The translations under genes and the position numbers were made by a program. 64,000 bases of DNA from Escherichia coli (GTDB taxonomy: Bacteria > Pseudomonadota > Gammaproteobacteria > Enterobacterales > Enterobacteriaceae). Of the stretch, positions 2,720 to 60,829 are shown piece after piece. Within the stretch, counting starts at the first letter, position 1; the number at the start of each line of letters is the position of its first letter. The notes under the pieces were generated by a model that had not been told where the DNA came from, searched no databases, and saw nothing but the letters and a program-made list of their open reading frames with translations. The stretch is taken from the NCBI RefSeq assembly GCF_050320075.1, contig NZ_CP190018.1. One strand, given 5' to 3'.

Positions 2720-5350
2720 ATGAGCAAGAGCACCGCTGAGATCCGTCAGGCGTTTCTCGACTTTTTCCATAGTAAGGGACATCAGGTAGTTGCCAGCAGC
2801 TCCCTGGTACCCCATAACGACCCAACTTTGTTGTTTACCAACGCCGGGATGAACCAGTTCAAGGATGTGTTCCTTGGGCTCGACAAGCGTAATTATTCCC
2901 GCGCTACCACTTCCCAACGCTGCGTGCGTGCGGGTGGTAAACACAACGACCTGGAAAACGTCGGTTACACCGCGCGTCATCATACCTTCTTCGAAATGCT
3001 GGGCAACTTCAGCTTCGGCGACTATTTCAAACACGATGCCATTCAGTTTGCATGGGAACTGCTGACCAGTGAAAAATGGTTTGCCCTGCCGAAAGAGCGT
3101 CTGTGGGTTACCGTCTATGAAAGCGACGACGAAGCCTACGAAATCTGGGAAAAAGAAGTAGGGATCCCGCGCGAACGTATTATTCGCATCGGCGATAACA
3201 AAGGTGCGCCATACGCATCTGACAACTTCTGGCAGATGGGTGACACTGGTCCGTGCGGCCCGTGCACCGAAATCTTCTACGATCACGGCGACCACATTTG
3301 GGGTGGCCCTCCGGGAAGTCCGGAAGAAGACGGCGATCGCTACATTGAGATCTGGAACATCGTCTTCATGCAGTTCAACCGCCAGGCAGATGGCACGATG
3401 GAACCGCTGCCGAAGCCGTCTGTAGATACCGGTATGGGTCTGGAGCGTATTGCTGCGGTGCTGCAACACGTTAACTCTAACTATGACATCGACCTGTTCC
3501 GCACGCTGATCCAGGCGGTAGCGAAAGTCACTGGCGCGACCGATCTGAGCAATAAATCGCTGCGCGTAATCGCTGACCACATTCGTTCTTGTGCGTTCCT
3601 GATCGCGGATGGCGTAATGCCGTCCAATGAAAACCGTGGTTATGTACTGCGTCGTATCATTCGTCGCGCAGTGCGTCACGGCAATATGCTGGGCGCGAAA
3701 GAAACCTTCTTCTACAAACTGGTTGGTCCGCTGATCGACGTAATGGGCTCTGCGGGTGAAGACCTGAAACGCCAGCAGGCGCAGGTTGAGCAGGTGCTGA
3801 AGACTGAAGAAGAGCAGTTTGCCCGTACTCTGGAGCGCGGTCTGGCGCTGCTGGATGAAGAGCTGGCAAAACTTTCTGGTGATACGCTGGATGGCGAAAC
3901 GGCTTTCCGTCTGTACGACACCTATGGCTTCCCGGTTGACCTGACGGCTGATGTTTGTCGTGAGCGCAACATCAAAGTTGACGAAGCTGGTTTCGAAGCA
4001 GCAATGGAAGAGCAGCGTCGTCGCGCGCGCGAAGCCAGCGGCTTTGGTGCCGATTACAACGCAATGATCCGTGTTGACAGCGCATCTGAATTTAAAGGCT
4101 ATGACCATCTGGAACTGAACGGCAAAGTGACCGCGCTGTTTGTTGATGGTAAAGCGGTTGATGCCATCAATGCAGGCCAGGAAGCTGTGGTCGTGCTGGA
4201 TCAAACGCCATTCTATGCGGAATCCGGCGGTCAGGTTGGTGATAAAGGCGAACTGAAAGGCGCTAACTTCTCCTTTGCGGTGGAAGATACGCAGAAATAC
4301 GGCCAGGCGATTGGTCACATCGGTAAACTTGCTGCGGGTTCTCTGAAAGTGGGCGACGCGGTGCAGGCTGATGTTGATGAGGCTCGTCGCGCCCGTATTC
4401 GTCTGAATCACTCCGCAACGCACCTGATGCACGCTGCGCTGCGCCAGGTTCTGGGTACTCATGTATCGCAGAAAGGTTCACTGGTTAACGACAAAGTGCT
4501 GCGCTTCGACTTCTCACACAACGAAGCGATGAAACCAGAAGAGATTCGTGCGGTCGAAGACCTGGTGAACGCACAGATTCGCCGTAACTTGCCGATCGAA
4601 ACCAACATCATGGATCTCGAAGCGGCGAAAGCGAAAGGTGCGATGGCGCTGTTCGGCGAGAAGTATGATGAGCGCGTACGCGTGCTGAGCATGGGCGATT
4701 TCTCCACCGAGCTGTGTGGCGGTACTCACGCCAGCCGCACTGGTGATATTGGTCTGTTCCGCATCATCTCTGAATCGGGTACTGCTGCAGGCGTTCGTCG
4801 TATCGAAGCGGTAACCGGAGAAGGCGCTATCGCCACCGTTCATGCAGACAGCGATCGCTTAAACGAAGTCGCGCATCTGCTGAAAGGCGATAGCAATAAT
4901 CTGGCTGATAAAGTGCGCTCAGTACTGGAACGTACGCGTCAGCTGGAAAAAGAGTTACAACAGCTTAAAGAACAAGCTGCCGCACAGGAGAGCGCAAATC
5001 TTTCCAGTAAGGCAATTGATGTTAATGGTGTTAAGCTGTTGGTTAGCGAGCTTAGCGGTGTTGAGCCGAAAATGTTGCGTACCATGGTTGACGATTTAAA
5101 AAATCAGCTGGGGTCGACAATTATCGTGCTGGCAACGGTAGCCGAAGGTAAGGTTTCTCTGATTGCAGGCGTATCTAAGGACGTCACAGATCGTGTGAAA
5201 GCAGGGGAACTGATTGGTATGGTCGCTCAGCAGGTGGGCGGCAAGGGTGGTGGACGTCCTGACATGGCGCAAGCCGGTGGTACGGATGCTGCGGCCTTAC
5301 CTGCAGCGTTAGCCAGTGTGAAAGGCTGGGTCAGCGCGAAATTGCAATAA
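2720..5350 (+). CDS. alaS: Alanine--tRNA ligase
   Basis: 876-aa [27 protein letters not shown].., class II aaRS; synteny. Confidence 0.98.
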
Positions 5351-5584
5351 TATAAGCGTCAGGCAATGCCGTGGACTCGCTTCACGGCATTCGCATTAAC
5401 GCTATCGACAACGATAAAGTCAGGTTGAAGTTGTGTATATCGGCTAAACTTAGGTTTAACAGAATGTAATGCCATGACTGCTTACATGTAATGTGTTTGT
5501 CATTGCTTACTTTTTGGCGTTATATGATGGATAATGCCGGGATACAGAGAGACCCGACTCTTTTAATCTTTCAAGGAGCAAAGA

Positions 5585-5770
5585 ATGCTGATTCTGACTC
5601 GTCGAGTTGGTGAGACCCTCATGATTGGGGATGAGGTCACCGTGACAGTTTTAGGGGTAAAGGGCAACCAGGTACGTATTGGCGTAAATGCCCCGAAGGA
5701 AGTTTCTGTTCACCGTGAAGAGATCTACCAGCGTATCCAGGCTGAAAAATCCCAGCAGTCCAGTTACTAA
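5585..5770 (+). CDS. csrA: Carbon storage regulator CsrA
   Basis: 61-aa [51 protein letters not shown].. Confidence 0.98.
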
Positions 5771-5777
5771 TCTTTCC

Positions 5778-5803
5778 GCGTCTCATCTTTATCGGTGAGA
5801 CGC
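5778..5803 (+). terminator. Hairpin downstream of csrA (possible terminator)
   Basis: Inverted repeat GCGTCTCA..TGAGACGC just after the csrA stop; no clear U-run, so weak. Confidence 0.3.
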
Positions 5804-6086
5804 ACCCCTCAAAATATCTCCTTCACTCCATTGTCTTTTCGCTTTACTCCCGTTCATTCAACTTAAGTCTCCATTTTTTTGCATTACTGCTATCTGACAG
5901 ACCTCCGTTTTTCTGTTGATAAAACACTCTTTTTGACGTTTTTACAGACTAATTGAGCGTGAAGTGTGCAAACGATAAAAGTGTGGGAAAAATTGTTTGA
6001 CTTATAAGTCTCAGAAAGTAATATGTGCGCCACGCAGCGACGATGAGCGATAAACAAGTTCTTCGAAGCACTCGTAAGAGGCGTGT

Positions 6087-6179
6087 GGTGAGGTGGCCGA
6101 GAGGCTGAAGGCGCTCCCCTGCTAAGGGAGTATGCGGTCAAAAGCTGCATCCGGGGTTCGAATCCCCGCCTCACCGCCA
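6087..6179 (+). tRNA. serV: tRNA-Ser (anticodon GCU)
   Basis: 93-nt sequence GGTGAGGTGGCCGAG..CGCCTCACCGCCA with long variable arm, anticodon loop CUGCUAA, 3' CCA. Confidence 0.95.
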
Positions 6180-6182
6180 TTT

Positions 6183-6259
6183 GCATCCGTAGCTCAGCTG
6201 GATAGAGTACTCGGCTACGAACCGAGCGGTCGGAGGTTCGAATCCTCCCGGATGCACCA
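6183..6259 (+). tRNA. argV: tRNA-Arg (anticodon ACG), copy 1
   Basis: 77-nt GCATCCGTAGCTCAGCTGGATAGAGTACTCGGCTACGAACCGAG..GGATGCACCA. Confidence 0.95.
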
Positions 6260-6370
6260 TATTCTACGTACTTTCAGCGATGAAGGTATGGAAGAGGTGG
6301 CGGTAATAACCGCAGGCACCAGGGAGGATAACGTTGCTTTAGCAACGGCCCGAAGGGCGAGCCGCAAGGC

Positions 6371-6393
6371 GAGTAATCCTCCCGGATGCACCA
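6371..6393 (+). pseudogene. tRNA 3'-end fragment (T-arm/acceptor remnant) inside the tRNA-Arg array spacer
   Basis: GAGTAATCCTCCCGGATGCACCA mimics the last ~20 nt of the adjacent tRNA-Arg and is followed by a normal inter-tRNA spacer. Confidence 0.5.
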
Positions 6394-6457
6394 TCTCTTA
6401 CTTGATACGGCTTTAGTAGCGGTATCAAAAAATCTGCAGTAAAGTAAGTTTCCCGAT

Positions 6458-6534
6458 GCATCCGTAGCTCAGCTGGATAGAGTACTCGGCTACGAACCGA
6501 GCGGTCGGAGGTTCGAATCCTCCCGGATGCACCA
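6458..6534 (+). tRNA. argY: tRNA-Arg (ACG), copy 2
   Basis: Identical 77-nt tRNA-Arg sequence. Confidence 0.95.
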
Positions 6535-6596
6535 TCTCTTACTTGATATGGCTTTAGCAGCGGTATCAATATCAGCAGTAAAATAAATTTCCCGAT

Positions 6597-6673
6597 GCAT
6601 CCGTAGCTCAGCTGGATAGAGTACTCGGCTACGAACCGAGCGGTCGGAGGTTCGAATCCTCCCGGATGCACCA
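6597..6673 (+). tRNA. argZ: tRNA-Arg (ACG), copy 3
   Basis: Identical 77-nt tRNA-Arg sequence. Confidence 0.95.
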
Positions 6674-6775
6674 TATTCTCCGTAATCATCAGTGATGATG
6701 GTTAAGATGGATTTTCTTATTTGATATGGCTTTAGTAGCGGTATCAATATCAGCAGTAAAATAAGTTTTCCCGAT

Positions 6776-6852
6776 GCATCCGTAGCTCAGCTGGATAGAG
6801 TACTCGGCTACGAACCGAGCGGTCGGAGGTTCGAATCCTCCCGGATGCACCA
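6776..6852 (+). tRNA. argQ: tRNA-Arg (ACG), copy 4
   Basis: Identical 77-nt tRNA-Arg sequence. Confidence 0.95.
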
Positions 6853-6999
6853 TCTTCTCCAAAAAATTTCCTTCAAAAATATCTCATTTCTAAATAACTA
6901 CTTTATCCATTTCCTGAATTTTCTTCTCCTTCGCCATCAGCGACAAAATCAAGCAATTACGCTAAAGTAGCGTCATATTTTTCGACTTGCGAGAAGACC

Positions 7000-7566
7000 A
7001 TGTACGAGCGTTATGCAGGTTTAATTTTTGATATGGATGGCACCATCCTGGATACCGAGCCTACGCACCGTAAAGCGTGGCGCGAAGTATTAGGGCACTA
7101 CGGTCTTCAGTACGATGTTCAGGCGATGATTGCGCTTAATGGCTCGCCCACCTGGCGTATTGCTCAGGCGATTATTGAGCTGAATCAGGCCGATCTCGAC
7201 CCGCATGCGTTAGCGCGTGAAAAAACAGAAGCAGTAAGAAGTATGCTGCTGGATAGTGTCGAGCCGCTTCCTCTTGTTGAAGTGGTGAAAAGCTGGCATG
7301 GTCGTCGCCCAATGGCTGTAGGAACGGGGAGTGAAAGCGCCATCGCTGAGGCATTGCTGGCGCACCTGGGATTACGCCGTTATTTTGACGCCGTCGTCGC
7401 TGCTGATCACGTCAAACACCATAAACCCGCGCCAGACACATTTTTGTTGTGCGCGCAGCGTATGGGCGTGCAACCGACACAGTGTGTGGTCTTTGAAGAT
7501 GCCGATTTCGGTATTCAGGCGGCCCGTGCAGCAGGCATGGACGCTGTGGATGTTCGCTTGCTGTGA
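7000..7566 (+). CDS. yqaB: HAD-family sugar phosphatase (fructose-1-phosphate phosphatase)
   Basis: 188-aa ORF with HAD motif FDMDGTILDTE; synteny. Confidence 0.9.
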   Translation: MYERYAGLIFDMDGTILDTEPTHRKAWREVLGHYGLQYDVQAMIALNGSPTWRIAQAIIELNQADLDPHALAREKTEAVRSMLLDSVEPLPLVEVVKSWHGRRPMAVGTGSESAIAEALLAHLGLRRYFDAVVAADHVKHHKPAPDTFLLCAQRMGVQPTQCVVFEDADFGIQAARAAGMDAVDVRLL

Positions 7567-49090: not shown

Positions 49091-51424
49091 TCAGGCTGTT
49101 GCAGGGTCGTCACATTTTGGCAGCCAGTCGCCGTAGCTTTCCTCTTTCAGCGTCAGGTTGGTCTGTATCCCCTGTTTGGTATGGCGCTTCTCGTAATTCA
49201 GTCCGTATTCCTTCAGCATCACCGGCAGCCCCAGCCCGAACATTTTCAGACTGAGTACGTTCCGGTAGCCGTTTGCCTCCATGTAGGCCAGATAGGCGTG
49301 ATAGAGGTATTTACGGTAATTGCGCGGGATGATGCTGGCGTTCCCCATATACATGCCGCTGGTCTGCGGCAGGGTTTCCAGATAGCCGATAAAATCAAAC
49401 GTCGGGTCGGCATCCCGTTTGATGTTCAGCGCCTCGTCTGAGTTCTGCTGGGACTGAAGCAGTGACCGGGCGAGCATCGGGTCGCTGAACTTCTGCATCA
49501 GGTGACGCACGATGACCGCCAGCTCGCGGGTGATTTTGTCCTTAAGCTGCGGGTCGCGCTCCTGCGGGGCTATCTGTTCCGGGAAGTGAATAATCACCCG
49601 CCGGCGTGACACGCCGCCGCTGCGGTCGGTGAAGCGCATCGGGTTATTGTTCACGGCCAGAATTACCGCCGGGATATGCGTGGAGTATGCATCCCGGTAT
49701 TTCGGGTCAACGGACACCGCATCGCCGCCGGTGATGGCCTTGAGTCCGGCACCGTCGCCGCTCCATTTTTCCTGGTCCGGCAGGCGTATCAGTGAGAAGC
49801 CAGTTAACGCGGCACGTTCACGCGGGGATTCCAGCGTCTCGATGGTGGCCGACGTGGCGTTATCCTCACCGGCCAGCAGGGTGGCTATTTCGGCCATGAT
49901 ACTTTTGCCGCTGCCGCCGGGACCGGTCACCTCCAGAAAGAGCTGCCAGTCGTAGCGGTTTGCCAGCACCATAAACAGTGCGGCCAGAATCACGTCGCGT
50001 TTTTCCGCACGACCACCGGCGGCACGGTCAAGCCAGCGCCAGAACGCGGGGGCGTGGGTTTCCAGCGTTTCCCCTTCCACCGGCGGGGTGAAATCCACAT
50101 CGCACAGGGTGCGCATCCAGTGTGACGGACTGTGCGGGTGGAACGTGCCGCTCTGCGTGTCGAGCACGCCGTTACGAAAGCCAATCAGGCGGCGGGAGGG
50201 GGCTTCCTGCTGCGGAATAATCAGCTTCAGGGTGTCCACCACGGAGGCCACCTTCCCGGAGGAGAACGGCGCGCGCAGACGCTGAAACAGCCCGGCCACA
50301 TCCCGGGCAAAGTCCTGTGGTGGCAGCACCTTCCAGACACCATTTTCATAACGGGACAGAAGCTGGCCGTTGGCATCAACCGCGAGCGCCTCGCCGTAAT
50401 GCTCATAGATACGCATGGCCTTTTCGCTGGTACTCATGGCGGAAAACTCCGCTTCGCTCATGGTGTCGAACGGGCTTTCAGCCGGTGGCCGGATGGCATC
50501 ATAAATGGCCTTACGGGTGGCTTCCCCGCCGTACTGCGTGAAGGCATCATTCCAGTCACCGAAGACCGGCGGCAGGGCAACAACACCTTCACACGCATCT
50601 GCGGCTGCGGCGGCTTTTTTCTGGCCGTCACCGCTGAGGTCACGGTCAGCAGCAAGGACAATCTGACAGGCCGGATGCTTCTGCCGGGCAAGGCTGGCCA
50701 GAGAAAGGAGATTCACGGAAGAAAGCGCCACCATCACCGTTTCACCGGTCAGGTGATGCACGGTAAGTGCGGTCGCGTATCCCTCCGCTATCCACAGACG
50801 TTTTCCGGCCTGATTCTGTCCTTCAAGGGTGTGACAGGTGCCCCTGACCTGTCCGCCTTTCAGGGTGCGCTTACGGCCGTCAGCACTGATTAACTGAAGG
50901 TTAACCAGTTCGCCGCTGTCGTCATACAGTGGCACCACAAGGTCACCGGCGCGCCAGCTCACGCCACCGGCTCTGTGTGTGCCGGTCAGCATCCGGCATT
51001 CCCGGCCGGGAAAGCCCTTGCGGGTCAGGTAGGCGTTACCGGTTCCGGGACGGGTTTTCGCCATCAGGGTTTGTGCCAGTGCGGCGGCGTTCTTCCGGGC
51101 AGCGTCTGTTTCAGCACCGGCGGCGGTCGTCACTGCCGGGTCAGCCGGGGGCAGGCTGCCGGTCACGGCAGCCACCTTTGCGGCCGCGTCGGACGGGGAA
51201 ACACCAAACACCTTTTCAACCAGTTTCAGGCCGTCACCGGCACCACACTGATTGCAGTACCAGGTGCCGCGCCCCTCCCTGTCATCAAAACGGAAGCGGT
51301 CACTCCCGCCACAGACCGGACAGGGCTGATGACGGTTCTTCAGCACCTGAATCCCCAGCGCCGGGAGAATACGCGGCCAGTGGCCGAGCGCATGGCTGAC
51401 GGTGGCGGTTACGTTCATTTTCAT
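49091..51424 (-). CDS. P4 alpha-like primase/helicase (replication protein)
   Basis: 777-aa ORF; N-terminal zinc motif CPVCGG..YCNQCG, toprim-like region, central Walker A GPGGSGKS; strong SD AAGGAG upstream. Confidence 0.9.
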   Translation of the reverse strand: MKMNVTATVSHALGHWPRILPALGIQVLKNRHQPCPVCGGSDRFRFDDREGRGTWYCNQCGAGDGLKLVEKVFGVSPSDAAAKVAAVTGSLPPADPAVTTAAGAETDAARKNAAALAQTLMAKTRPGTGNAYLTRKGFPGRECRMLTGTHRAGGVSWRAGDLVVPLYDDSGELVNLQLISADGRKRTLKGGQVRGTCHTLEGQNQAGKRLWIAEGYATALTVHHLTGETVMVALSSVNLLSLASLARQKHPACQIVLAADRDLSGDGQKKAAAAADACEGVVALPPVFGDWNDAFTQYGGEATRKAIYDAIRPPAESPFDTMSEAEFSAMSTSEKAMRIYEHYGEALAVDANGQLLSRYENGVWKVLPPQDFARDVAGLFQRLRAPFSSGKVASVVDTLKLIIPQQEAPSRRLIGFRNGVLDTQSGTFHPHSPSHWMRTLCDVDFTPPVEGETLETHAPAFWRWLDRAAGGRAEKRDVILAALFMVLANRYDWQLFLEVTGPGGSGKSIMAEIATLLAGEDNATSATIETLESPRERAALTGFSLIRLPDQEKWSGDGAGLKAITGGDAVSVDPKYRDAYSTHIPAVILAVNNNPMRFTDRSGGVSRRRVIIHFPEQIAPQERDPQLKDKITRELAVIVRHLMQKFSDPMLARSLLQSQQNSDEALNIKRDADPTFDFIGYLETLPQTSGMYMGNASIIPRNYRKYLYHAYLAYMEANGYRNVLSLKMFGLGLPVMLKEYGLNYEKRHTKQGIQTNLTLKEESYGDWLPKCDDPATA

Positions 51425-51438
51425 GGTGTTGTTCTCCT

Positions 51439-51759
51439 TCAGTGCAGTACCGGCGCTTTTATGTGACGGGCACAGAGTTCATCCATCACAACCAGCCCGA
51501 GAAAGGACAGCGACGGCGCGGCCTTCAGGGGGCCGGATTCCATTAAATCTTCCAGCAGGGCACAGGCTATCTGACGCCCTTTTTCCTCACCGTGCTGGCG
51601 CAGATAAAAGCCTTCCAGCTCAGCGGCGATGGCCGCCTCCAGTGATTCAAGGGTGAGATGCGGGTAGCGGTGCTGACGTTCGCACACGGTCAGCCAGGCA
51701 CAGGCGACAGCGCGACGGTAAAGGGCAGCGCGTAAGACGGGCGGTAAGGGTGTTTTCAT
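51439..51759 (-). CDS. 106-aa protein upstream of alpha (P4 orf106/Cnr-like by position and size)
   Basis: ORF with GGAGG SD 7 nt upstream; ends 14 bp before the alpha start; functional name is from recalled P4 gene order only. Confidence 0.6.
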
Positions 51760-51894
51760 TTGCTTTCCTCCCTGTGACAGATGACTGCATTCCGTGCCGG
51801 TTGCATTAACTGATAAGGCATATCTGCGTCTCCTGAAGACGTGCGTATCCCTGCGCGAATACGCACATTTAATTTTTCGGGTGTCGTTTTTTAA

Positions 51895-52350
51895 TTACAG
51901 ATAATTGCGGTAACTGTTATCCGGGGTGATTTCCGGGTCAGACTCCGTGCGGGGAATTTCCCGCCATTCCCGCGCCACCGGTGCCGCCCGGCTGACCGGA
52001 ACAGGGGCCTGCGGGTAAATATCCAGATATTTCTCCCGCCATTTCTGTAATTCCGGGTCTCCGGCCATTTCTTTCAGTACCGCATGCCGGTTTACGGGGC
52101 TGCGTTTAAACAGGTCAGGACGGTCACAGGTAAATTCCCGCAGAAAACGCCCCAGCGGGATGTCTGTGGTGCGTCCGTCAGCGAGGATACGCACAAGGAT
52201 ACTGAATTTACGGCGGTACGGGTTCCAGACAATGTCCGGGCAGCGGTACGGCATTTCCCACGGAATACCGTCTTCCAGAATGCCGACCACGGCCACATCG
52301 GGAAAACCGGCAGAACGGTAAATCTCACCGGGCTGGGGAAAATCAAACAT
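51895..52350 (-). CDS. 151-aa hypothetical protein (P4 orf151-like)
   Basis: Start ATG overlaps the stop of the upstream gene (ATGTTTGA); same operon. Confidence 0.6.
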   Translation of the reverse strand: MFDFPQPGEIYRSAGFPDVAVVGILEDGIPWEMPYRCPDIVWNPYRRKFSILVRILADGRTTDIPLGRFLREFTCDRPDLFKRSPVNRHAVLKEMAGDPELQKWREKYLDIYPQAPVPVSRAAPVAREWREIPRTESDPEITPDNSYRNYL

Positions 52351-52630
52351 GCGTCCTGTCTCCCCGGTCTTTCTGCTGGGCGAGAAAATCGCGGCACAGG
52401 CCTTTGGCTTTCAGCTCATTCAGCACAAAATCAATATCTTCATTCAGGTAGCTGAAAATATGCGGAATGTAGAGCTGATGCAGGCCGGAGAGTTCACGGT
52501 GAATCAAATCACCCCCAACAAACTGGGATACGGCGCTGGCGCGGTTGAGCTTATGGTAAGCCTCAATGCTGAGGTGTTCACGGGCGTCATGACGCGCTGA
52601 GACGGTCTGAGGGGCTTTTTTATTACGCAC
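52343..52630 (-). CDS. 95-aa hypothetical protein, GTG start (possibly P4 epsilon-like)
   Basis: Track ORF 52343..52915 has an implausible N-terminus overlapping the upstream gene; GTG at 52630 is preceded by GGAGG at 6-nt spacing, giving [28 protein letters not shown].. Confidence 0.5.
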
Positions 52631-53222
52631 GGGACACCTCCACCACCGGCAGACGGGCAGCAAGGGAGAGCACATAGTCACGGACAAGGGAACGGCGGGC
52701 ACTGCGTTCATCACCGGCGACGGTGCGAAGCATACAGATACGGGGATGACGGTCTGCGCGACGGACAGCCGCAAACACAAAGACAAATTCAGGGTGTGAG
52801 GGGGTAAGGGTTGTAGCCATGATGGCAGCCTCCTGTGAATAGCAAATAACGCTATCGCCGGAGTTCTCACGCTCGATGGCGATAGCCCAGACGGGGGTGA
52901 GAATACCGGCTTCACAGGATACCGGCCAGCCCGGAGGCTGCCCCGCCTGAGCTACCATTGACTCTGCGGCATAATGAGCGGACGCGGGCAGGATGCACGG
53001 AATGCCATCTGCACGACTGACCACACACCACACCATAATCTGGCGCTCTGTGGCATTGATTGCGACACAAAAAAAGACGCGTGGCGCGTCATATGTCGCC
53101 TGTGAATTGCTCGGGTTCTCACGCCCGGCTGCCGATTTTGCGGCAGCGGAAAAACTATATCCGCAAATGCCGGAAAAAGGCAAGCCAGAAAAAGGGACTT
53201 TTTGCAGAGCGGGCATCATCAT
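52623..53222 (-). CDS. 199-aa hypothetical protein (P4 orf199-like)
   Basis: ATGATGATG at 53222-53214 overlaps the vis stop (ATGA coupling); track ORF 52623..53267 extends into vis in another frame. Confidence 0.5.
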
Positions 53223-53485
53223 GCGTCGTACCCCCGTTTGCGTCCGGCAATGCGCCCGGCCATCCATGCGGTGACTTCAGAGTGCAGCCAGGCCACATTT
53301 TTACCGCCAAGACTCACCTGCGGCGGAAATTCCCCTTTACGGATGAGTTCATAGATGGTCGAGCGTGACAGGCCGCACAGGTGCATCACTTCCGGCAGAC
53401 GTAAAAAACGCTCCTGCGTGATGTCCGGCAGCGGCATCAGTGGCGTCACAGGGGCGGGAGACGGGGAAGAAAAAACAGCTTGCAT
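53219..53485 (-). CDS. AlpA/Vis-family phage regulator (excisionase-like HTH), 88 aa
   Basis: ..[44 protein letters not shown].. AlpA-type HTH; first gene of the leftward operon. Confidence 0.8.
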
Positions 53486-53587
53486 CGGGCTACCTCGTTA
53501 ATGTCCATACAGCACCGGATAAGTCCGTCCGGCTTCGGGTAGCGCTTTATTTTGTGAATATTTTCAGCAGACGCAACAGGGGGGATT

Positions 53588-53605
53588 TGTTCCGGCAGTC
53601 TTACA
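53588..53605 (-). promoter_or_regulatory. TGT-N12-ACA dyad (Ogr/Delta activator-type box) upstream of the vis-alpha operon
   Basis: TGTTCCGGCAGTCTTACA about 100 bp upstream of the vis start; dyad geometry as in P2/P4 late promoters. Confidence 0.45.
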
Positions 53606-53764
53606 ATGGCTGTGTATTTTTTGTTCATCTCCACTTAAAGTCATTTAAAGCCACTTAAAGCAATTCGTAATTTTTATAGTGAAATACAAATCGTTTTTTC
53701 TTATTCATTCCCGGCGAATTAATAAAAACAAACAGTAATAAACAGCACAAAAAGCCCATCAACG

Positions 53765-53869
53765 GGTGAACAGTGGTGAACAGACGGTGAACAGTCATTA
53801 CTGCGATTGTTCACCCTTTAACTTACTGTATTACTTATCTTTTTTATTAAGGTGAACAGAGGTGAACAG
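53765..53869. repeat. Iteron cluster (GGTGAACAG x5 direct, 1 inverted), ori-like
   Basis: GGTGAACAG at 53765, 53775, 53786, 53851, 53861; inverted TGTTCACC at 53808-53815; same 8-mer as the cluster at 48948-49040. Confidence 0.8.
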
Positions 53870-53948
53870 TAAAATATAAAAAAAACAAACAGTAAGCCGG
53901 TTTTTCCTGCGACCTTTTCCTGGCTTGCCGGTCTGAGGATGAGTCTCC

Positions 53949-53966
53949 TGTGTCAGGGCTGGCACA
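53949..53966 (+). promoter_or_regulatory. TGT-N12-ACA dyad (Delta/Ogr box) of the sid promoter
   Basis: TGTGTCAGGGCTGGCACA centred ~80 bp upstream of the sid ATG. Confidence 0.45.
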
Positions 53967-54038
53967 TCTGCAATGCGTCGTGTTGTTGTCCGGTGTACGT
54001 CACAATTTTCTTAACCTGAAGTGACGAGGAGCCGGAAA

Positions 54039-54773
54039 ATGTCTGACAACACCATCCCTGAATATCTGCAACCCGCGCTGGCACAACTGGAAAAGGCCAG
54101 AGCCGCCCATCTTGAGAACGCCCGCCTGATGGATGAGACCGTCACGGCCATTGAACGGGCAGAACAGGAAAAAAATGCGCTGGCGCAGGCCGACGGAAAC
54201 GACGCTGACGACTGGCGCACGGCCTTTCGTGCAGCCGGTGGTGTCCTGAGCGACGAGCTGAAACAGCGCCACATTGAGCGCGTGGCACGCCGGGAGCTGG
54301 TACAGGAATATGACAATCTGGCCGTGGTGCTGAATTTTGAACGTGAACGCCTGAAAGGGGCGTGTGACAGCACGGCCACCGCCTACCGGAAGGCACATCA
54401 TCACCTGCTGAGTCTGTATGCAGAGCATGAGCTGGAACACGCCCTGAATGAAACCTGTGAGGCGCTTGTCCGGGCAATGCATCTGAGCATCCAGGTACAG
54501 GAAAATCCGCTCGCCAACACCACCGGCCATCAGGGCTACGTCGCGCCGGAAAAGGCTGTCATGCAGCAGGTGAAATCATCGCTGGAGCAGAAAATTAAAC
54601 AGATGCAAATCAGCCTCACCGGCGAGCCGGTTCTCCGGCTGACCGGACTGTCAGCGGCAACACTCCCGCACATGGATTATGAGGTGGCAGGCACACCGGC
54701 ACAGCGCAAGGTGTGGCAGGACAAAATAGACCAGCAGGGAGCAGAGCTTAAGGCCAGAGGACTGCTGTCATGA
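54039..54773 (+). CDS. sid: P4 Sid-like capsid size-determination (external scaffold) protein, 244 aa
   Basis: Start MSDNTIPEYLQPALAQLEK.. inside track ORF 54021..54773; coiled-coil-rich; stop overlaps the delta start (ATGA). Confidence 0.8.
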   Translation: MSDNTIPEYLQPALAQLEKARAAHLENARLMDETVTAIERAEQEKNALAQADGNDADDWRTAFRAAGGVLSDELKQRHIERVARRELVQEYDNLAVVLNFERERLKGACDSTATAYRKAHHHLLSLYAEHELEHALNETCEALVRAMHLSIQVQENPLANTTGHQGYVAPEKAVMQQVKSSLEQKIKQMQISLTGEPVLRLTGLSAATLPHMDYEVAGTPAQRKVWQDKIDQQGAELKARGLLS

Positions 54774-55270
54774 TTTACTGCCCGTCGTGTGGACATGTTG
54801 CTCACACCCGTCGCGCACATTTCATGGACGATGGCACCAAGATAATGATTGCACAGTGCCGGAATATTTATTGCTCTGCGACATTTGAAGCGAGTGAAAG
54901 CTTTTTCTCTGACAGTAAAGATTCAGGAATGGAATACATTTCAGGCAAACAGAGATACCGCGATTCACTGACGTCGGCCTCCGGCAGTATGAAACGCCCG
55001 AAAAGAATGCTTGTTACCGGATATTGTTGTCGGAGATGTAAAGGCCTTGCGCTGTCAAGAACATCGCGGCGTCTGTCTCAGGAAGTCACCGAGCGTTTTT
55101 ATGTGTGCACGGATCCGGGCTGTGGTCTGGTGTTTAAAACGCTTCAGACCATCACCCGCTTCATTGTCCGCCCGGTCACGCCGGACGAACTGGCAGAAAA
55201 CCTGCATGAAAAACAGGAACTGCCGCCAGTACGGTTAAAAACACAATCATATTCGCTGCGTCTGGAATGA
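54770..55270 (+). CDS. P4 Delta-like late-gene activator (tandem Ogr-type zinc fingers), 166 aa
   Basis: Two Cys4 motifs (CPSCGH..CRNIYC and CCRRCKG..CTDPGCG). Confidence 0.85.
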   Translation: MIYCPSCGHVAHTRRAHFMDDGTKIMIAQCRNIYCSATFEASESFFSDSKDSGMEYISGKQRYRDSLTSASGSMKRPKRMLVTGYCCRRCKGLALSRTSRRLSQEVTERFYVCTDPGCGLVFKTLQTITRFIVRPVTPDELAENLHEKQELPPVRLKTQSYSLRLE

Positions 55271-55343
55271 GGGCTGCCGGTTAACACCGGCCGTCGCCAC
55301 ACACCGTATTTTTATTCTTCAGCATGATGAGAAAGAGATAACG

Positions 55344-55916
55344 ATGGAAAGCACAGCCTTACAGCAGGCCTTTGACACCTGTCAGAATAACAAAGCAGCA
55401 TGGCTGCAACGCAAAAATGAGCTGACTGCGGCCGAACAGGAATATCTGCGGCTTCTGTCAGGAGAAGGCAGAAACGTCAGTCACCTGGACGAATTACGCA
55501 ATATTATCGAAGTCAGAAAATGGCAGGTGAATCAGGCCGCCGGTCGTTATATTCGTTCGCATGAAGCCGTTCAGCACATCAGCATCCGCGACCGGCTGAA
55601 TGATTTTATGCAGCAGCACGGCACAGTACTGGCGGCCGCACTGGCACCGGAGCTGATGGGCTACAGTGAGCTGACGGCCATTGCCCGAAACTGTGCCATA
55701 CAGCGTGCCACAGATGCCCTGCGTGAAGCCCTTCTGTCCTGGCTTGCGAAGGGTGAAAAAATTAATTATTCCGTACAGGATAGCGACATTTTAACGACCA
55801 TCGGATTCAGGCCTGACGCGGCTTCGGTGGATGACAGCCGTGAAAAATTCACCCCTGCGCAGAACATGATTTTTTCGCGCAAAAGTGCGCAACTGGCATC
55901 ACATCAGTCTGTGTAA
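55344..55916 (+). CDS. psu: P4 Psu-like polarity suppression / capsid decoration protein, 190 aa
   Basis: 190-aa ORF following sid and delta; lengths 244/166/190 match my recollection of P4. Confidence 0.8.
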   Translation: MESTALQQAFDTCQNNKAAWLQRKNELTAAEQEYLRLLSGEGRNVSHLDELRNIIEVRKWQVNQAAGRYIRSHEAVQHISIRDRLNDFMQQHGTVLAAALAPELMGYSELTAIARNCAIQRATDALREALLSWLAKGEKINYSVQDSDILTTIGFRPDAASVDDSREKFTPAQNMIFSRKSAQLASHQSV

Positions 55917-55950
55917 AACTCCCCGAAAATCCGCCCGTTTTTACTGAAAA

Positions 55951-55983
55951 AAGCCATGCATCGATAAGGTGCATGGCTTTGCA
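55951..55983 (+). terminator. Intrinsic terminator after psu
   Basis: Hairpin GCCATGCATCGATAAGGTGCATGGC followed by TTT. Confidence 0.6.
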
Positions 55984-56080
55984 TGCGTTTTCCTGCCTCA
56001 TTTTCTGCAAACCGTGCCATTCCCGGCGCGGTCTGAGCGTGTCAGTACAACTGCATTAAAACCGCCCCGCAAAGCGGGCG

Positions 56081-56099
56081 GGCGAGGCGGGGAAAGCAC
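56081..56099. other. cos site (P2/P4-type 19-nt cohesive end sequence)
   Basis: GGCGAGGCGGGGAAAGCAC inside a GC-rich palindromic context (AAACCGCCCCGCAAAGCGGGCGGGCGAGGCGGGG..); matches the P2/P4 cohesive end as I recall it. Confidence 0.7.
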
Positions 56100-56303
56100 C
56101 GCGCGCTAAACCTGATGAATAAGGAATATTTTAAAAACATTTGTGGATATGAATATTTGGGTTGTAAATGAGTGTTTTTATCTGTTTTTATGTGCTGTGA
56201 AGCAATGTTTGAGTCGATATTTTTATAAAGCTCAATAAAAATTACATTATCATTGATAAGAATGGTTGTCGGATTAACACGTTTTTAAGCTATTTATATA
56301 TAA

Positions 56304-56332
56304 TTAAACCTCGGCAAGGTTGCTGAGGTTTA
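56304..56332 (-). terminator. Putative terminator downstream of the cargo gene
   Basis: Inverted repeat TAAACCTCGGCA..TGCTGAGGTTTA just past the stop at 56350, followed by AT-rich sequence on the minus strand. Confidence 0.45.
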
Positions 56333-56349
56333 ATCGATTGGTTAATTAT

Positions 56350-59076
56350 TTAGTTGATTAGGTGTGACTCAGTTGCAGAGTGACCTTTTTTTGTCCTAAC
56401 AAACTTGATAGCAAGTGTTTTTCCTCTAATGTAATTAGACCAGTTATATTTTTCTTCACCAAGGCAACTGTCCCTATGAATTAATATTTCTTTTCCATCA
56501 GAATCTCTGGCAAAAACAAATCCTTTTCCTAATGTAAGATCTGAATATATTTCTGCTATAGAATATCCATTATTTTTCCATGTGATTTGTTCGAATTCGG
56601 CAATTGTTTTAGATGAGCTAAAAGCACTCCATTTGGGGGAGGTGAATGGGTTGTTTGGTATTTTTGTTGCTCTCATTGTTGAAATGATATTAACTACTTC
56701 TTTACTTGATATCTTAAAATCTTTAGAGAACTTTGTAATGTCGGCAAGATTGCTTTCAGCAAAATCAATTACTTTTATAATGAATTGTTGAGATAGTTTA
56801 TCAATGTTGTTTTTGATCGTGTCACAAAAAAGATTTAAAGATTTAATAGCTTCGTCAGAAAGTCGATCGCTGATGTTTTCTTTTTCAAATATAAATTCCA
56901 ATATGTCGATAACTTCAGATATGTTTTTTTCTACAGACTCAGGGTTAATGTCGAAGTTATTTTCACAAGAACGCTTTAATGCGGCGACTCTAAAGTAAGC
57001 TTGCTCTTGAGGTGAATGTGAATCTTTCCATTTTTCAGTGTATTCAAGAATGTCTGGGTATTCTTTACCATAAAGATGAACACCTAAATACTCTCGCATT
57101 ATTATAGAAGACAGTACTTCGCCTGAATGCTCAACTCTGTCGAATCCAGAATCAATCAATTCCTGAGATACTTTTTGAGCCTCTATAAAATCACCAATAT
57201 CTTTATAGATATACATCAGAGTTAAGTTGTTTAGTGGATTTTCAGACTCTATGCCTATTGCTGACTTTATACAAGAAATAGCACCTAAATTATCACCCTG
57301 CTTATGTAGTATTCTGGCATATGTTCGCATAAATAGAGGATTTTTTTGATATATTTGAGCGAGTGTTTTAAAATCCTCATAAATAACATTTAATTTATCT
57401 TTGTTAACGCTTTTGTAGCCTAAAATTTTATTTGCTCTGTTAACAGCTATTTGCAAGGAGTCAGGGCTATTATTAGGGATGAATCGATAATCAAACCGAT
57501 CTATTTCTTTATCTTGTTGGAATTTTTGTAAGTGCAATATTTCAGTTCGTTGTTTTCTTGCTTTTTCAGCAATAATGTTTCTGACGGTGTTATTTCTTGG
57601 TGATGTGATTAATAGTTCTTTGATTGATTCACTTAAAGAAAACTCTTCTTCTCCCGTATTAGATGTTTTCCGGGATACTAAAGATGTGTTCAATATTTCT
57701 TTAATCGCTTTTGCTATTGAGTCGGGATCTGAATCTAAGAAATGAGTTAAAAATGATCTTGATGATGCTCCGGTGACAAACAAGCATTCAAGAATAGATA
57801 TTGCATCGTTACTTAAAACATCTAATAGATTATTAAATGAAAATGCAGCGATATCTTTTTTGGATTTTTCTATTGAGTCAGGTAAAGCCATTCCATTATA
57901 AATGGAATCTATTGTAAGCCTTATTGCTAAGGGGTTAAAATGAGTCACTTCAGTAATTCTCGTGAGTTCTTCTGGGGTTAAGTTTATTATCCCTCGTTTA
58001 TCTGAATATGATTTGGCTAGATGGAAAGCCACACCAGATTGCAATTCCTTAAGTGAAATTGGGTAAGCTCCGTCAACCATTATTCGACTAGTGACTACCA
58101 CTTTAAAATTCGAAGGAAGAGTATACTGGAAACGAATGAACTCATCAGGACCATCTCTTAATAAAGTTTCGAGATTATCGATACATAGGAGAGTGCTTTC
58201 TATATCTTGGTCGTTTATAATTTCTGAATATAGATCATCATAGTTTTCTATCTCTTCATCAGGATTAAAAAACTCCACTATTTCTTTTTTTATTTCAGAA
58301 ATGGTGTCAATGTTTTTTAACTCAGAAATACCATCAGCAGTGAGATGATGTTTCTTTAATGTTAAATAGCAAATGTTTTTGAATTTCTCATTGGCTTTTG
58401 GTGAGATGCTCAATTCTTTTAAGAAATCTAAAATTAAAGCGGTTTTTCCTACGCCTCCAGGAGCTACAACCGCAATGAATGGAGTTCGATCGTTATTTAT
58501 TGCTGATAATAACTCTTTCTTTTCACCTTTACGGCCTATAAGGCTGGTAATGTCGTGATCAAATTTATCAGGCAGGTTGTTATTAATTTCCCAGCTAATA
58601 GTAGAAAACCATTCTTCTGGAGGTGCTTTTAATTGACCAGTAGATGCGGAATAATAAGCATCCTTCACACTTTTTAAACCAAGTACTTCTATATATGGAT
58701 GTGAGGCTATAGCTGCAGCGCAATGCCAGTAATGCTCATGGAATGGTCGGGTTGGATGACTAATTTGATTTCTTATAAAAAATAAATCAACAGCTGTACA
58801 GAACTCTTTCAGTTCTGACAGTTTATCATAGTCAGATGTACCCTTAGCTAATTGCAGGGCATAATTGAAAATTTCACCGATATAACTTGCTTGGATAAGA
58901 GTTTGCGTATTGAAAACGGGACCTCTCCCACGCTCCAGTTCTAGTTTAGAACGAGGTTCGAAATGTTCGCTTAACCTACTTTTACCTCCTGCATCCTCAC
59001 TAACAACATACGCCGCCAATGCTTTTTCTAAGGCATAAACTATCATACTAGTTTTCGTATCAAGATATTCAGACAT
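56350..59076 (-). CDS. STAND (NB-ARC-type) NTPase with N-terminal effector-like domain, helical repeat region and C-terminal beta domain; candidate antiphage defence protein
   Basis: 908-aa AT-rich ORF with SD AAGGA; LIGRKGEKKEL..IAVVAPGGVGKTALIL (Walker A), LLCIDNLE (Walker B), KVVVTSR (RNBS-B-like), HFNPLAIRL (GLPL-like); N-terminal IRNQISH (Rx4H); C-terminal GKGFVFARDSDGKEILIH. Confidence 0.8.
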   Translation of the reverse strand: MSEYLDTKTSMIVYALEKALAAYVVSEDAGGKSRLSEHFEPRSKLELERGRGPVFNTQTLIQASYIGEIFNYALQLAKGTSDYDKLSELKEFCTAVDLFFIRNQISHPTRPFHEHYWHCAAAIASHPYIEVLGLKSVKDAYYSASTGQLKAPPEEWFSTISWEINNNLPDKFDHDITSLIGRKGEKKELLSAINNDRTPFIAVVAPGGVGKTALILDFLKELSISPKANEKFKNICYLTLKKHHLTADGISELKNIDTISEIKKEIVEFFNPDEEIENYDDLYSEIINDQDIESTLLCIDNLETLLRDGPDEFIRFQYTLPSNFKVVVTSRIMVDGAYPISLKELQSGVAFHLAKSYSDKRGIINLTPEELTRITEVTHFNPLAIRLTIDSIYNGMALPDSIEKSKKDIAAFSFNNLLDVLSNDAISILECLFVTGASSRSFLTHFLDSDPDSIAKAIKEILNTSLVSRKTSNTGEEEFSLSESIKELLITSPRNNTVRNIIAEKARKQRTEILHLQKFQQDKEIDRFDYRFIPNNSPDSLQIAVNRANKILGYKSVNKDKLNVIYEDFKTLAQIYQKNPLFMRTYARILHKQGDNLGAISCIKSAIGIESENPLNNLTLMYIYKDIGDFIEAQKVSQELIDSGFDRVEHSGEVLSSIIMREYLGVHLYGKEYPDILEYTEKWKDSHSPQEQAYFRVAALKRSCENNFDINPESVEKNISEVIDILEFIFEKENISDRLSDEAIKSLNLFCDTIKNNIDKLSQQFIIKVIDFAESNLADITKFSKDFKISSKEVVNIISTMRATKIPNNPFTSPKWSAFSSSKTIAEFEQITWKNNGYSIAEIYSDLTLGKGFVFARDSDGKEILIHRDSCLGEEKYNWSNYIRGKTLAIKFVRTKKGHSATESHLIN

Positions 59077-59094
59077 ATATGATCCTTGTTCAAA

Positions 59095-60282
59095 TTAAAG
59101 AGTGGTTTGCAATCCCCACCAATTCATTAACTCTATACGTTGTTCTAAATAGGTACTTCTATTGTAAGCTTTTCGAACCTCATTCCTCTCGGAATGCGCC
59201 AATGCTGCTTCAATAACATCAGGATTAAATTCTGCTTCGTTCATTGCCGTACTGGCAATTGATCTTAGTCCATGGGCCACTAACTTACCGCCATAACCTA
59301 TTCTCTTCAAGGCAGCGTTTGCCGTCTGACTGTTCATCGGCTGTTTTGGATCGTTTCTGCTCGGGAAAATATGTTCACGGTGACCACTGATAGGCTTCAT
59401 TACTTCCAAAATACCTAAAGCCTGAGGTGACAAAGGGACAATGTGTTCACGTTTAGCCTTCATTCGTTCGGCGGGAATCGTCCAGAGTTTGGCCTCGAGA
59501 TCGATCTCGACCCACCGAGCACCAGAAGCCTCAGAAGGGCGCACTAGGGTCAGGAGCTGCCACTCGATAAGACAGCGAGTCGGAACAGACAGATTCGACA
59601 TTACCAGAGAACGCATCAGCTTAGGTAATTCTTCGGGTCGTAGCGTGGGCATATTCTGCTTTTTGGGTTTCTCAAATGCCATTCCAACACCTGATGCTGG
59701 ATTTGCATCAATTAGACCAGTGTTTACGGCATAAATCATTATCTCGTTAATGCGCTGTACCAGACGACGTACCGTCTCTAGCGCGCCACGTGCTTTGATT
59801 GGTTCGAGGGTTTCAACAAGTGTTCGGGCTTTGATTTGCTGAACAGGGAGCTCACCGATGGCAGGTAATACATCTTTTTCCAGGGAACGCCAAATGTCTT
59901 TCGCGTAATCAGGGGTAACGCTTTTGCTTTTTATCTGGAACCAGTTGGTCGCAACAGTCGAAAAAATACTGTCTAGAGCTATCTGTTGTTGTTCTTCGAT
60001 AAATTCAGCTTGAACTTGTGGGTCTATACCATTAGCCAACAAAGCAAGGTAATCCGCTCTTAACCGTCGAGCATCAGCAAGTGAAAGGGCGGGGAAAGCA
60101 CCAAGCCCCATCATTGTCCGCTGTTTTGTTGCTGGACGTTGATAACGGAAACGCCACAACTTCTTACCGTTCGTTTTAACGAGCAGAAAAAGGCCATCGC
60201 CATCATGTAACGTTAGATCCTTTTCTAACGCTTTAGCGCGCAGAACTTCGGTGTTGGTCAGGGGGCGTGTTGTTCTTGCCAC
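59095..60282 (-). CDS. P4-family tyrosine integrase
   Basis: 395-aa ORF, GTG start with AAGGAG SD; N-terminal arm-binding-like LTNTEVLRAKALEKDLTLHDGDGLFLLVKTNGKKLWRFRY; C-terminal HGLRS..R..Y catalytic region; adjacent to the ssrA 3' end. Confidence 0.9.
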   Translation of the reverse strand: MARTTRPLTNTEVLRAKALEKDLTLHDGDGLFLLVKTNGKKLWRFRYQRPATKQRTMMGLGAFPALSLADARRLRADYLALLANGIDPQVQAEFIEEQQQIALDSIFSTVATNWFQIKSKSVTPDYAKDIWRSLEKDVLPAIGELPVQQIKARTLVETLEPIKARGALETVRRLVQRINEIMIYAVNTGLIDANPASGVGMAFEKPKKQNMPTLRPEELPKLMRSLVMSNLSVPTRCLIEWQLLTLVRPSEASGARWVEIDLEAKLWTIPAERMKAKREHIVPLSPQALGILEVMKPISGHREHIFPSRNDPKQPMNSQTANAALKRIGYGGKLVAHGLRSIASTAMNEAEFNPDVIEAALAHSERNEVRKAYNRSTYLEQRIELMNWWGLQTTL

Positions 60283-60466: not shown

Positions 60467-60829
60467 TGGTGGAGCTGGCGGGAGTTGAACCCGCGTCCGA
60501 AATTCCTACGTCCTCGGTACTACATGCTTAGTCAGTCTTTACATTCGCTTGCCAGCTGCGGACGGACACGCCACTAACAAACTAGCCTGATTAAGTTTTA
60601 ACGCTTCAACCCCAGGCAGGGCTTCCACGCGATCTCTTTTGGGTTTGACCTCTCTTGATCCCCGTCCTAAGAGCGGAGGCTAGGGAGAGAGGGCTCTAAG
60701 CAGGTTATTAAGCTGCTAAAGCGTAGTTTTCGTCGTTTGCGACTATTTTTTGCGGCTTTTTACGAGGCCAACCGCCCCTCGGCATGCACCTTGGGTTTCG
60801 CAAATCCCGTCGAATCCAGAATCAGCCCC
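60467..60829 (-). ncRNA. ssrA: tmRNA (SsrA), 363 nt
   Basis: Minus strand reads GGGGCTGATTCTGGATTCGACGGGATTTGCGAAACCC..; tag ORF GCAAACGACGAAAACTACGCTTTAGCAGCTTAA (ANDENYALAA*); 3' end ..GCCAGCTCCACCA. Confidence 0.97.

Follow-up and report, generated by a model that had tools for sequence, protein, structure and literature searches.

A HEPN-like domain as the predicted RNase effector of a single-gene, NLR-like STAND protein carried by a P4-like satellite of Escherichia coli

A 64-kb stretch of an Escherichia coli chromosome (64,000 nucleotides of contig NZ_CP190018.1, hereinafter designated the window) holds a P4-like satellite whose sole cargo between psu and int is a gene for a 908-amino-acid (aa) protein. 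The protein has an NLR-type fold, in which an N-terminal helical domain with an invariant R-N-x3-H motif (hereinafter designated the N-domain) is followed by an NB-ARC-type STAND nucleoside triphosphatase (NTPase) module with a winged helix, a TPR-like solenoid and a small C-terminal barrel. We put at about 0.62 the probability that it is a single-protein, NLR-like antiviral sensor, HEPN-like at its N-terminus and CSD/S1-like at its C-terminus, which serves the satellite as defence cargo and in which pairing of the HEPN domains would create a ribonuclease (RNase) and bring about abortive infection. Residues 1-160 most likely form a divergent HEPN domain, for which RNase activity is predicted.

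The preliminary description of this DNA had noticed the motif FFIRNQISH in a helical-looking region ahead of the P-loop and had proposed a HEPN-type RNase on that basis. Translation bears out the motif at aa 99-107 (nucleotides 58756-58782), the span 58756-58773 given there being exactly RNQISH (aa 102-107), and AlphaFold predicts aa 1-158 to be all-helical, with the Walker A motif (aa 205-212) lying about 100 residues beyond RNQISH. The loose Rx4-6H pattern is uninformative, because the 908-aa protein contains it eight times where about 2.3 occurrences are expected; in its strict form, R-N-x3-H, the pattern is expected 0.046 times in a protein of the same composition and 0.008 times in the first 170 aa. 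None of 120 full-length homologues (~34% identity) departs from R102 or H107, and both residues are likewise invariant in all 60 of 60 sequences reaching down to 25% identity and in every member of a set of 242 N-domains that includes 50%-identity cluster representatives and extends down to ~25% identity. N103 is retained in 239 of these 242, and the RNQISH motif is therefore not a product of chance. The family consensus around it reads F-[DE]-I-R-N-A-[IV]-S-H-P-N-R-P-F-x-D-x-Y-W. Conserved acids are found in the N-terminal half of the N-domain at positions 17 (E, invariant) and 68 (E or D), with the counts given in Table 1. A second Rx4H sequence, RPFHEH at aa 110-115, was considered as the motif and rejected, its histidines not being conserved across the family.

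The predicted fold agrees with the HEPN reading. AlphaFold models of the N-domain alone (predicted local distance difference test, pLDDT, 78.7; 13-sequence alignment) and of the full-length protein (pLDDT 87.5; 60 sequences) contain the same helices, at residues 2-27, 36-48, 57-62, 66-77, 82-95, 98-105, 114-124, 127-131, 135-145 and 154-158, and the domain is all-alpha with the four-helix up-and-down core of HEPN domains. R102 and N103 stand at the end of helix 98-105, with H107 in the loop preceding helix 114-124, a placement that matches the published site of the HEPN motif where helix 3 ends and in the loop between helices 3 and 4 (PMC3710099). The comparison with HEPN folds proposed in the preliminary description thus yielded a helical bundle, and HEPN proteins are far over-represented among its neighbours of solved structure. 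Foldseek searches of AFDB50 with the N-domain returned mostly unannotated family members, together with two sub-threshold entries: a 'CSD domain-containing protein' of 952 aa (17% identity, probability 0.99) and one named 'Swt1-like HEPN domain-containing protein' (probability 0.84).

The order of domains has a precedent as well. Swt1-like HEPN domains fused to 'STAND-ATPase, TPR, S1' were recorded computationally in 2013 by Anantharaman et al. (PMC3710099, Table 1), who also recorded 'N-terminal HEPN + STAND + C-terminal cold-shock OB', assigned the HEPN domain of this architecture by profile-profile methods, and named Npun_F6454, MED222_16016 and Desac_1927 as examples (PMC3710099). Those proteins share with the present one the order HEPN, STAND NTPase, TPR and small OB domain (S1/CSD-like), and the 2013 family has, as here, a conserved Rx4-6H motif and is described as 'mostly active' (PMC3710099). 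Vibrio and cyanobacterial members occur both in the present family and among the published examples. From this likeness of domain description we infer that the two are one family; the Pfam model HEPN_Swt1 does not match the present family. In the supplementary annotation table of a 2026 survey of defence STAND proteins, HEPN_Swt1 is one of the Pfam domains given the class of effector; neither that survey nor a 2026 preprint on P4/P2 systems (Crouga, Bandua, Aernus, Toga, Reve and Hailong) mentions this protein.

Several observations weigh against the assignment. No robust HEPN profile match to the N-domain was found in Pfam, NCBIfam or PADLOC: Pfam gave no HEPN match to the query protein, with HEPN_MAE_28990 matched by 1/13 family members at E 0.015; NCBIfam returned nothing for the domain; and the PADLOC Cas13d model, which matches one isolated N-domain over residues 7-167 (E 2.2e-4), loses that match when the full-length protein is scanned. 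PHROGs gave no reliable HEPN match, the PDB gave none in either a sequence or a profile search, and a word-index homology search restricted to the N-domain came back empty. Aligned by hhalign with an ApeA-like HEPN protein (pFR83, the 'HEPN-TPR' of Rousset et al., itself matched by PADLOC Cas13-ApeA at E 1.6e-5), the N-domain shows three colinear conserved motifs, pairing TKTSMIVYALEK with LTYSMLVYALES, Y65..E68 with Y..E, and IRNQISHPTRP with IRSSFVHELKP; the alignment, in which the pFR83 side is shallow (nine homologues), is not significant (E 0.003-0.026, probability 2-11%). Similarity at the level of profiles to an established HEPN family thus stays below significance. The enrichment of HEPN neighbours is a fold-level result and not a residue overlay of R102 and H107 on catalytic R and H. 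Domain shuffling lends no independent support, because the N-domain is almost confined to one architecture. The searchable literature contains no experimental work on HEPN-STAND proteins or on this family, and although the identical protein, WP_089620504, appears in Table S1 of Rousset et al., it is not among the systems listed as tested (PMC9122126). Three P4-derived systems, HEPN-TPR, NOD-1 and NOD-2, appear there only in a table of 'additional tested systems' (PMC9122126); we take this placement to mean that they gave no defence against the phage panel, although the table does not state the outcome. Weighing these points against fold, motif, conservation, architecture and genomic context, all of which support the HEPN reading, we class the N-domain as HEPN-like, on its fold, motif and architecture.

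The helix-1 motif SM[IV]xYALE (aa 9-20; 59017-59052, minus strand; M11 and E17 invariant) resembles SMLVYALES of the 'HEPN-TPR' protein of E. coli ATCC 8739, which is another P4 hotspot cargo. The match is statistically weak, and the motif may be a common signature of a HEPN subgroup. The possibility that the tested 'HEPN-TPR' (pFR83) is the present protein was examined and rejected, pFR83 being ApeA-like and without a STAND module.

Downstream of the N-domain, the protein carries the features of an NB-ARC/AP-ATPase STAND module. A STAND 'hhGRxxE' arm motif (LIGRKGE, aa 179-185) at the junction between linker and NTPase is followed by Walker A, with GGVGKT at aa 207-212, Walker B, and the TSR motif of the nucleotide-binding domain, which ends at aa 331; helical and winged-helix domains come after the nucleotide-binding domain and include a GLPL-like motif, NPLAIRL (aa 381-387), in which N381, P382 and L383 are invariant. 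Homologues give weak matches to winged helix-turn-helix models (CasR/Csa3/Lrs14) at about aa 400-480. None of the Avs1-5 and other catalogued defence STAND models of PADLOC v2 matches the family as such; the matches obtained, to PDC-S27 (2.6e-4), mad8 and Avs1b (0.0028, one homologue), are at the level of the P-loop. The N-domain is the sole candidate effector, the remainder consisting of NB-ARC NTPase, winged helix, TPR and OB-like barrel.

The C-terminal barrel is predicted by AlphaFold to have five strands (839-845, 853-858, 863-867, 887-895 and 898-907) and bears an RNP1-like KGFVFA (aa 851-856) and an RNP2-like ILIHRD (aa 864-869). In an hhalign comparison with CspA (E 3.6e-4, probability 37%), KGFVFA and ILIH fall in register with KGFGFI and VFVH, and F855 is conserved in 58/60 sequences. 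Pfam CSD matches the barrel in 1/27 members, cold-shock matches in the PDB are weak (E 0.4-1.2), and no hidden Markov model library annotates an OB fold in the E. coli protein itself. Taken together, these data give moderate support to a CSD/S1-like OB fold at aa 836-908, which could act as a sensor of RNA or single-stranded DNA or as a substrate-recruiting module.

Table 1 Features of the 908-aa protein, its gene and the surrounding satellite; coordinates are those of the window.
Feature	Coordinates	Strand	Basis or note
908-aa cargo gene (908 codons + stop)	56350..59076	-	Open reading frame listing of the 64-kb E. coli chromosome window
N-terminal HEPN-like helical domain, aa 1-158, predicted RNase effector	58603..59076	-	AlphaFold, motif
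E17, invariant glutamate of helix 1 (SM[IV]xYxLE), candidate active-site or structural acid	59026..59028	-	242/242 N-domains
Y65-I-G-E68, second conserved polar motif of the N-domain	58873..58884	-	Y 237/242; E/D at 68 238/242
R102-N103-Q-I-S-H107, candidate HEPN catalytic motif	58756..58773	-	Conservation and AlphaFold placement
Linker/arm, aa 159-182 (W162, N166-x-L-P169, F-D-H174, T177, LIGR182)	58531..58602	-	Conservation
NB-ARC/AP-ATPase-type STAND nucleotide-binding domain, aa 183-345	58042..58530	-	
Walker A, APGGVGKT, aa 205-212	58441-58464	-	
Walker B, LLCIDNLE, aa 296-303	58168-58191	-	
Helical and winged-helix domains (aa 346-492) of the STAND module	57601..58041	-	AlphaFold secondary structure
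TPR-like alpha-solenoid, aa 496-835, presumed ligand-sensing region	56572..57591	-	
Five-stranded beta-barrel, aa 836-908, cold-shock/S1-like OB fold (moderate support)	56353..56571	-	AlphaFold, hhalign
isrK/C4 immunity RNA (Rfam isrK, c4-a1b1)	53070-53160	-	Rfam
sid-like gene	54021-54773		
ogr/delta	54770-55270		
psu (polarity suppression protein), left border of hotspot	55344..55916	+	
P4-type integrase gene, right border of hotspot	59095..60282	-	
ssrA (transfer-messenger RNA), integration site of satellite	60467..60829	-	Rfam

The genomic setting of the gene is that of a defence cargo. Lying between psu and a P4-type int and adjoining ssrA/smpB, the gene is part of a P4-like satellite integrated at ssrA, which also contains a primase-helicase gene, ogr/delta, a sid-like gene and the isrK/C4 immunity RNA and has smpB next to ssrA. 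Between psu and int, P4-like satellites have an anti-phage hotspot that has been validated experimentally (Rousset et al. 2022, PMC9122126), and WP_089620504 is entered in Table S1 of that paper as a single hotspot gene labelled 'hypothetical' (PMC9122126). No credible additional open reading frame was found in the interval, so that the cargo is a single gene, and a scan of its vicinity with Rfam detected the transfer-messenger RNA and the P4 isrK/C4 RNAs and no other noncoding RNA. The ATG start codon has a Shine-Dalgarno sequence (AAGGA) 7 nucleotides upstream and lies 18 nucleotides downstream of the int stop codon. The G+C content across the gene is ~33%, compared with ~50% in the flanks, and a scan of 5426 complete E. 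coli genomes found the gene in 7 of them, at an identity of at least 99.8%.

The satellite as a whole looks complete and spans about 49090-60282, between ypjA and smpB. At 56062-56081 on the minus strand, ~270 nucleotides downstream of the 908-aa gene, a T-run follows a GC-rich hairpin (CCGCCCGCTTTGCGGGGCGG TTTT); the same sequence recurs at the psu-proximal border of many of the hotspot fragments cloned by Rousset et al. and is therefore a conserved boundary or terminator of the hotspot.

Relatives of the protein are widespread and occupy similar settings. A full-length search retrieved 319 homologues from Bacteroidota, Gammaproteobacteria and other groups, of ~900-920 aa, with 95-100% query coverage and 32-36% identity; a closer clade at 59-60% identity comprises Yersinia and Pantoea, and the family includes many Vibrio members and at least one from cyanobacteria. 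An exhaustive profile search with the N-domain gave 245 cluster representatives (50% identity). Among the matches listed (the best 150 of 245), the N-domain occurs essentially in one architecture of the same length, apart from apparent fragments, and no bridge to annotated HEPN families was seen. The Yersinia and Pantoea orthologues come directly after a P4-type integrase at ssrA, and their satellites also have ogr/delta, AlpA, Ash and primase. A Klebsiella homologue adjoins McrBC and type I HsdR, and on another contig adjoins an integrase. In Acinetobacter baumannii, a member at 33% identity (positions 4646-7318) is the largest gene of the 8-kb non-mobilizable plasmid pABLAC1, where it adjoins a RelE/ParE toxin-antitoxin pair, and five further A. 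baumannii plasmids, 8-30 kb in size, carry the same gene; on another A. baumannii contig, a homologue lies ~5 kb from a SinI restriction-modification system. Searches of deposited phage genomes gave no match to the family. This distribution and these neighbours are the pattern of a horizontally mobile defence gene.

A truncated member is found in IMG/VR, at 5239-5766 of IMGVR_UViG_2728369570_000003, a 6-kb viral contig whose end it occupies; upstream of it are a fusion gene for P2-type tail protein I and an unannotated 365-aa open reading frame. It may be a copy in a P2-like prophage hotspot. Within the N-domain (58603-59076, minus strand), the enterobacterial P4 clade (E. coli, Yersinia and Pantoea) is off-consensus at positions 21, 62, 67, 104, 109, 113, 119 and 126, the changes including A21 for G, Q62 for E, G67 for D, Q104 for A, T109 for N, C119 for R and H126 for D. 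E17, R102, N103 and H107 are retained in the clade despite these departures. Judged by these substitutions, the clade appears to be a divergent subclade, possibly with an N-domain of altered substrate or regulation.

Among known defence systems, the protein has features in common with Avs and TIR-NLR proteins and with ApeA and DARNA. Avs1-5, Avs7-21 (2026 survey) and the TIR-NLR of P4 hotspots likewise combine an effector at the N-terminus with a central STAND NTPase and a TPR-like sensor at the C-terminus; they are encoded by single genes, occur in P4 hotspots and defence islands, and have effectors that oligomerisation activates. The differences lie in the effector, which is an Mrr/Cap4 nuclease, SIR2 or TIR domain in those systems and HEPN-like here, and in the short length (908 aa), the OB-fold end and the lack of a significant PADLOC Avs match. 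ApeA and DARNA (PD-T7-3) are single-polypeptide HEPN anticodon nucleases from E. coli defence hotspots that stay silent until an infection cue and cause abortive infection, as is proposed for the present protein. ApeA-type genes share the P4 hotspot with this gene, and the ApeA-like protein shares helix-1 SM[IL]VYALE and IRxxxxHxxxP with this family at a similarity that is not significant. Unlike the present protein, ApeA and DARNA lack an NTPase switch and exist constitutively as large oligomers under the control of small ligands or single-stranded DNA. AbiF, of the AbiF/AbiD (Abi_2) group, is a standalone HEPN protein held by a noncoding RNA antitoxin, whereas regulation by the STAND module is proposed here and Rfam shows no such RNA near the gene.

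STAND/NLR proteins oligomerise upon ligand binding and nucleotide exchange, by which Avs proteins assemble their N-terminal effectors, and HEPN enzymes are dimers with composite sites, the defence HEPN proteins ApeA and DARNA cutting tRNA. By analogy, the protein would at rest be a monomer, presumably ADP-bound, and its lone HEPN domain would lack an active site because the protein is monomeric. During infection, a phage-derived ligand would be bound by the TPR region, the OB barrel or both, permitting nucleotide exchange and oligomerisation of the NTPase module. Oligomerisation would in turn pair the N-terminal HEPN domains, so that R102, N103 and H107 of two subunits form a composite metal-independent RNase site. 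Host RNA, phage RNA or both would then be cut, translation would stop and the infection would be aborted. Possible substrates are tRNA anticodon loops, as for ApeA, DARNA and PrrC, or mRNA, and the OB barrel may alternatively recruit the RNA substrate. The preliminary description spoke of an effector released upon NTPase oligomerisation; 'assembled' is the better word.

A variant of this scheme differs in the trigger. The barrel, alone or with the TPR solenoid, might sense phage RNA or single-stranded DNA rather than a phage protein, the answer again being an RNase; we regard this variant as unlikely. Three other readings compete with the scheme itself. Non-nuclease roles in RNA or ligand binding have been proposed for the HEPN domains of eukaryotic Swt1 and Roquin. 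The N-domain could likewise be a HEPN-type fold that binds RNA or a ligand or serves as an oligomerisation or adaptor module, with any arrest coming from ATP consumption or from a partner encoded elsewhere. HEPN domains that are inactive have typically lost R and/or H (PMC3710099), both of which are invariant here alongside a nearly invariant N, and neither another candidate effector domain in the protein nor a second gene in the hotspot is available to take over the effector role, which makes this reading improbable. Still less probable is a generic four-helix bundle of the plant CNL coiled-coil or death-fold-like kind, acting by membrane insertion or recruitment, in which R-N-x3-H would be structural: HEPN proteins far outnumber expectation among the structural neighbours, invariance falls on polar residues of catalytic type (E, Y, E/D, R, N and H) and not on the hydrophobic core, the motif sits exactly at the position usual for HEPN motifs, and the architecture was assigned to HEPN in 2013 (PMC3710099). 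We give very little credence to a MalT/GutR-type STAND regulator of transcription or signalling that rides on mobile elements without being immune, a reading to which a homologue named 'Transcription activator gutR' in UniProt and some JGI annotations as 'MarR family transcriptional regulator', due to the winged helix, would point, and which has against it that the gene is the sole cargo of a validated defence hotspot in P4-like satellites of three genera, that one homologue adjoins McrBC and type I restriction-modification genes, that no N- or C-terminal DNA-binding output domain is present and the winged helix is the internal one of the STAND module, and that G+C content is low and the distribution patchy (7/5426 E. 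coli genomes).

The effectors characterised in bacterial NLR-like (Avs/STAND) proteins are deoxyribonuclease, SIR2, TIR and protease domains. For a HEPN RNase effector under a STAND switch, the searchable literature holds a sequence-based prediction and no experimental study. The design principle is already known and the present protein is otherwise an expected variation on a kind predicted in 2013; this member is unannotated, its effector domain being missed by Pfam, NCBIfam and PADLOC. The family to which it belongs is mobile and well conserved, with ~245 clusters (50% identity) in Bacteroidota, Gammaproteobacteria, cyanobacteria and other phyla, and is carried on P4-like satellites, small plasmids and defence islands. 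If the proposed HEPN-STAND mechanism is true, the protein would add a defence system to the P4 hotspot catalogue and would offer a clean system for studying how oligomerisation activates a HEPN site and whether an OB fold can act as NLR sensor or substrate recruiter. Should the barrel sense nucleic acid, the protein would be a prokaryotic counterpart, working through a STAND switch, of nucleic-acid-sensing innate receptors.

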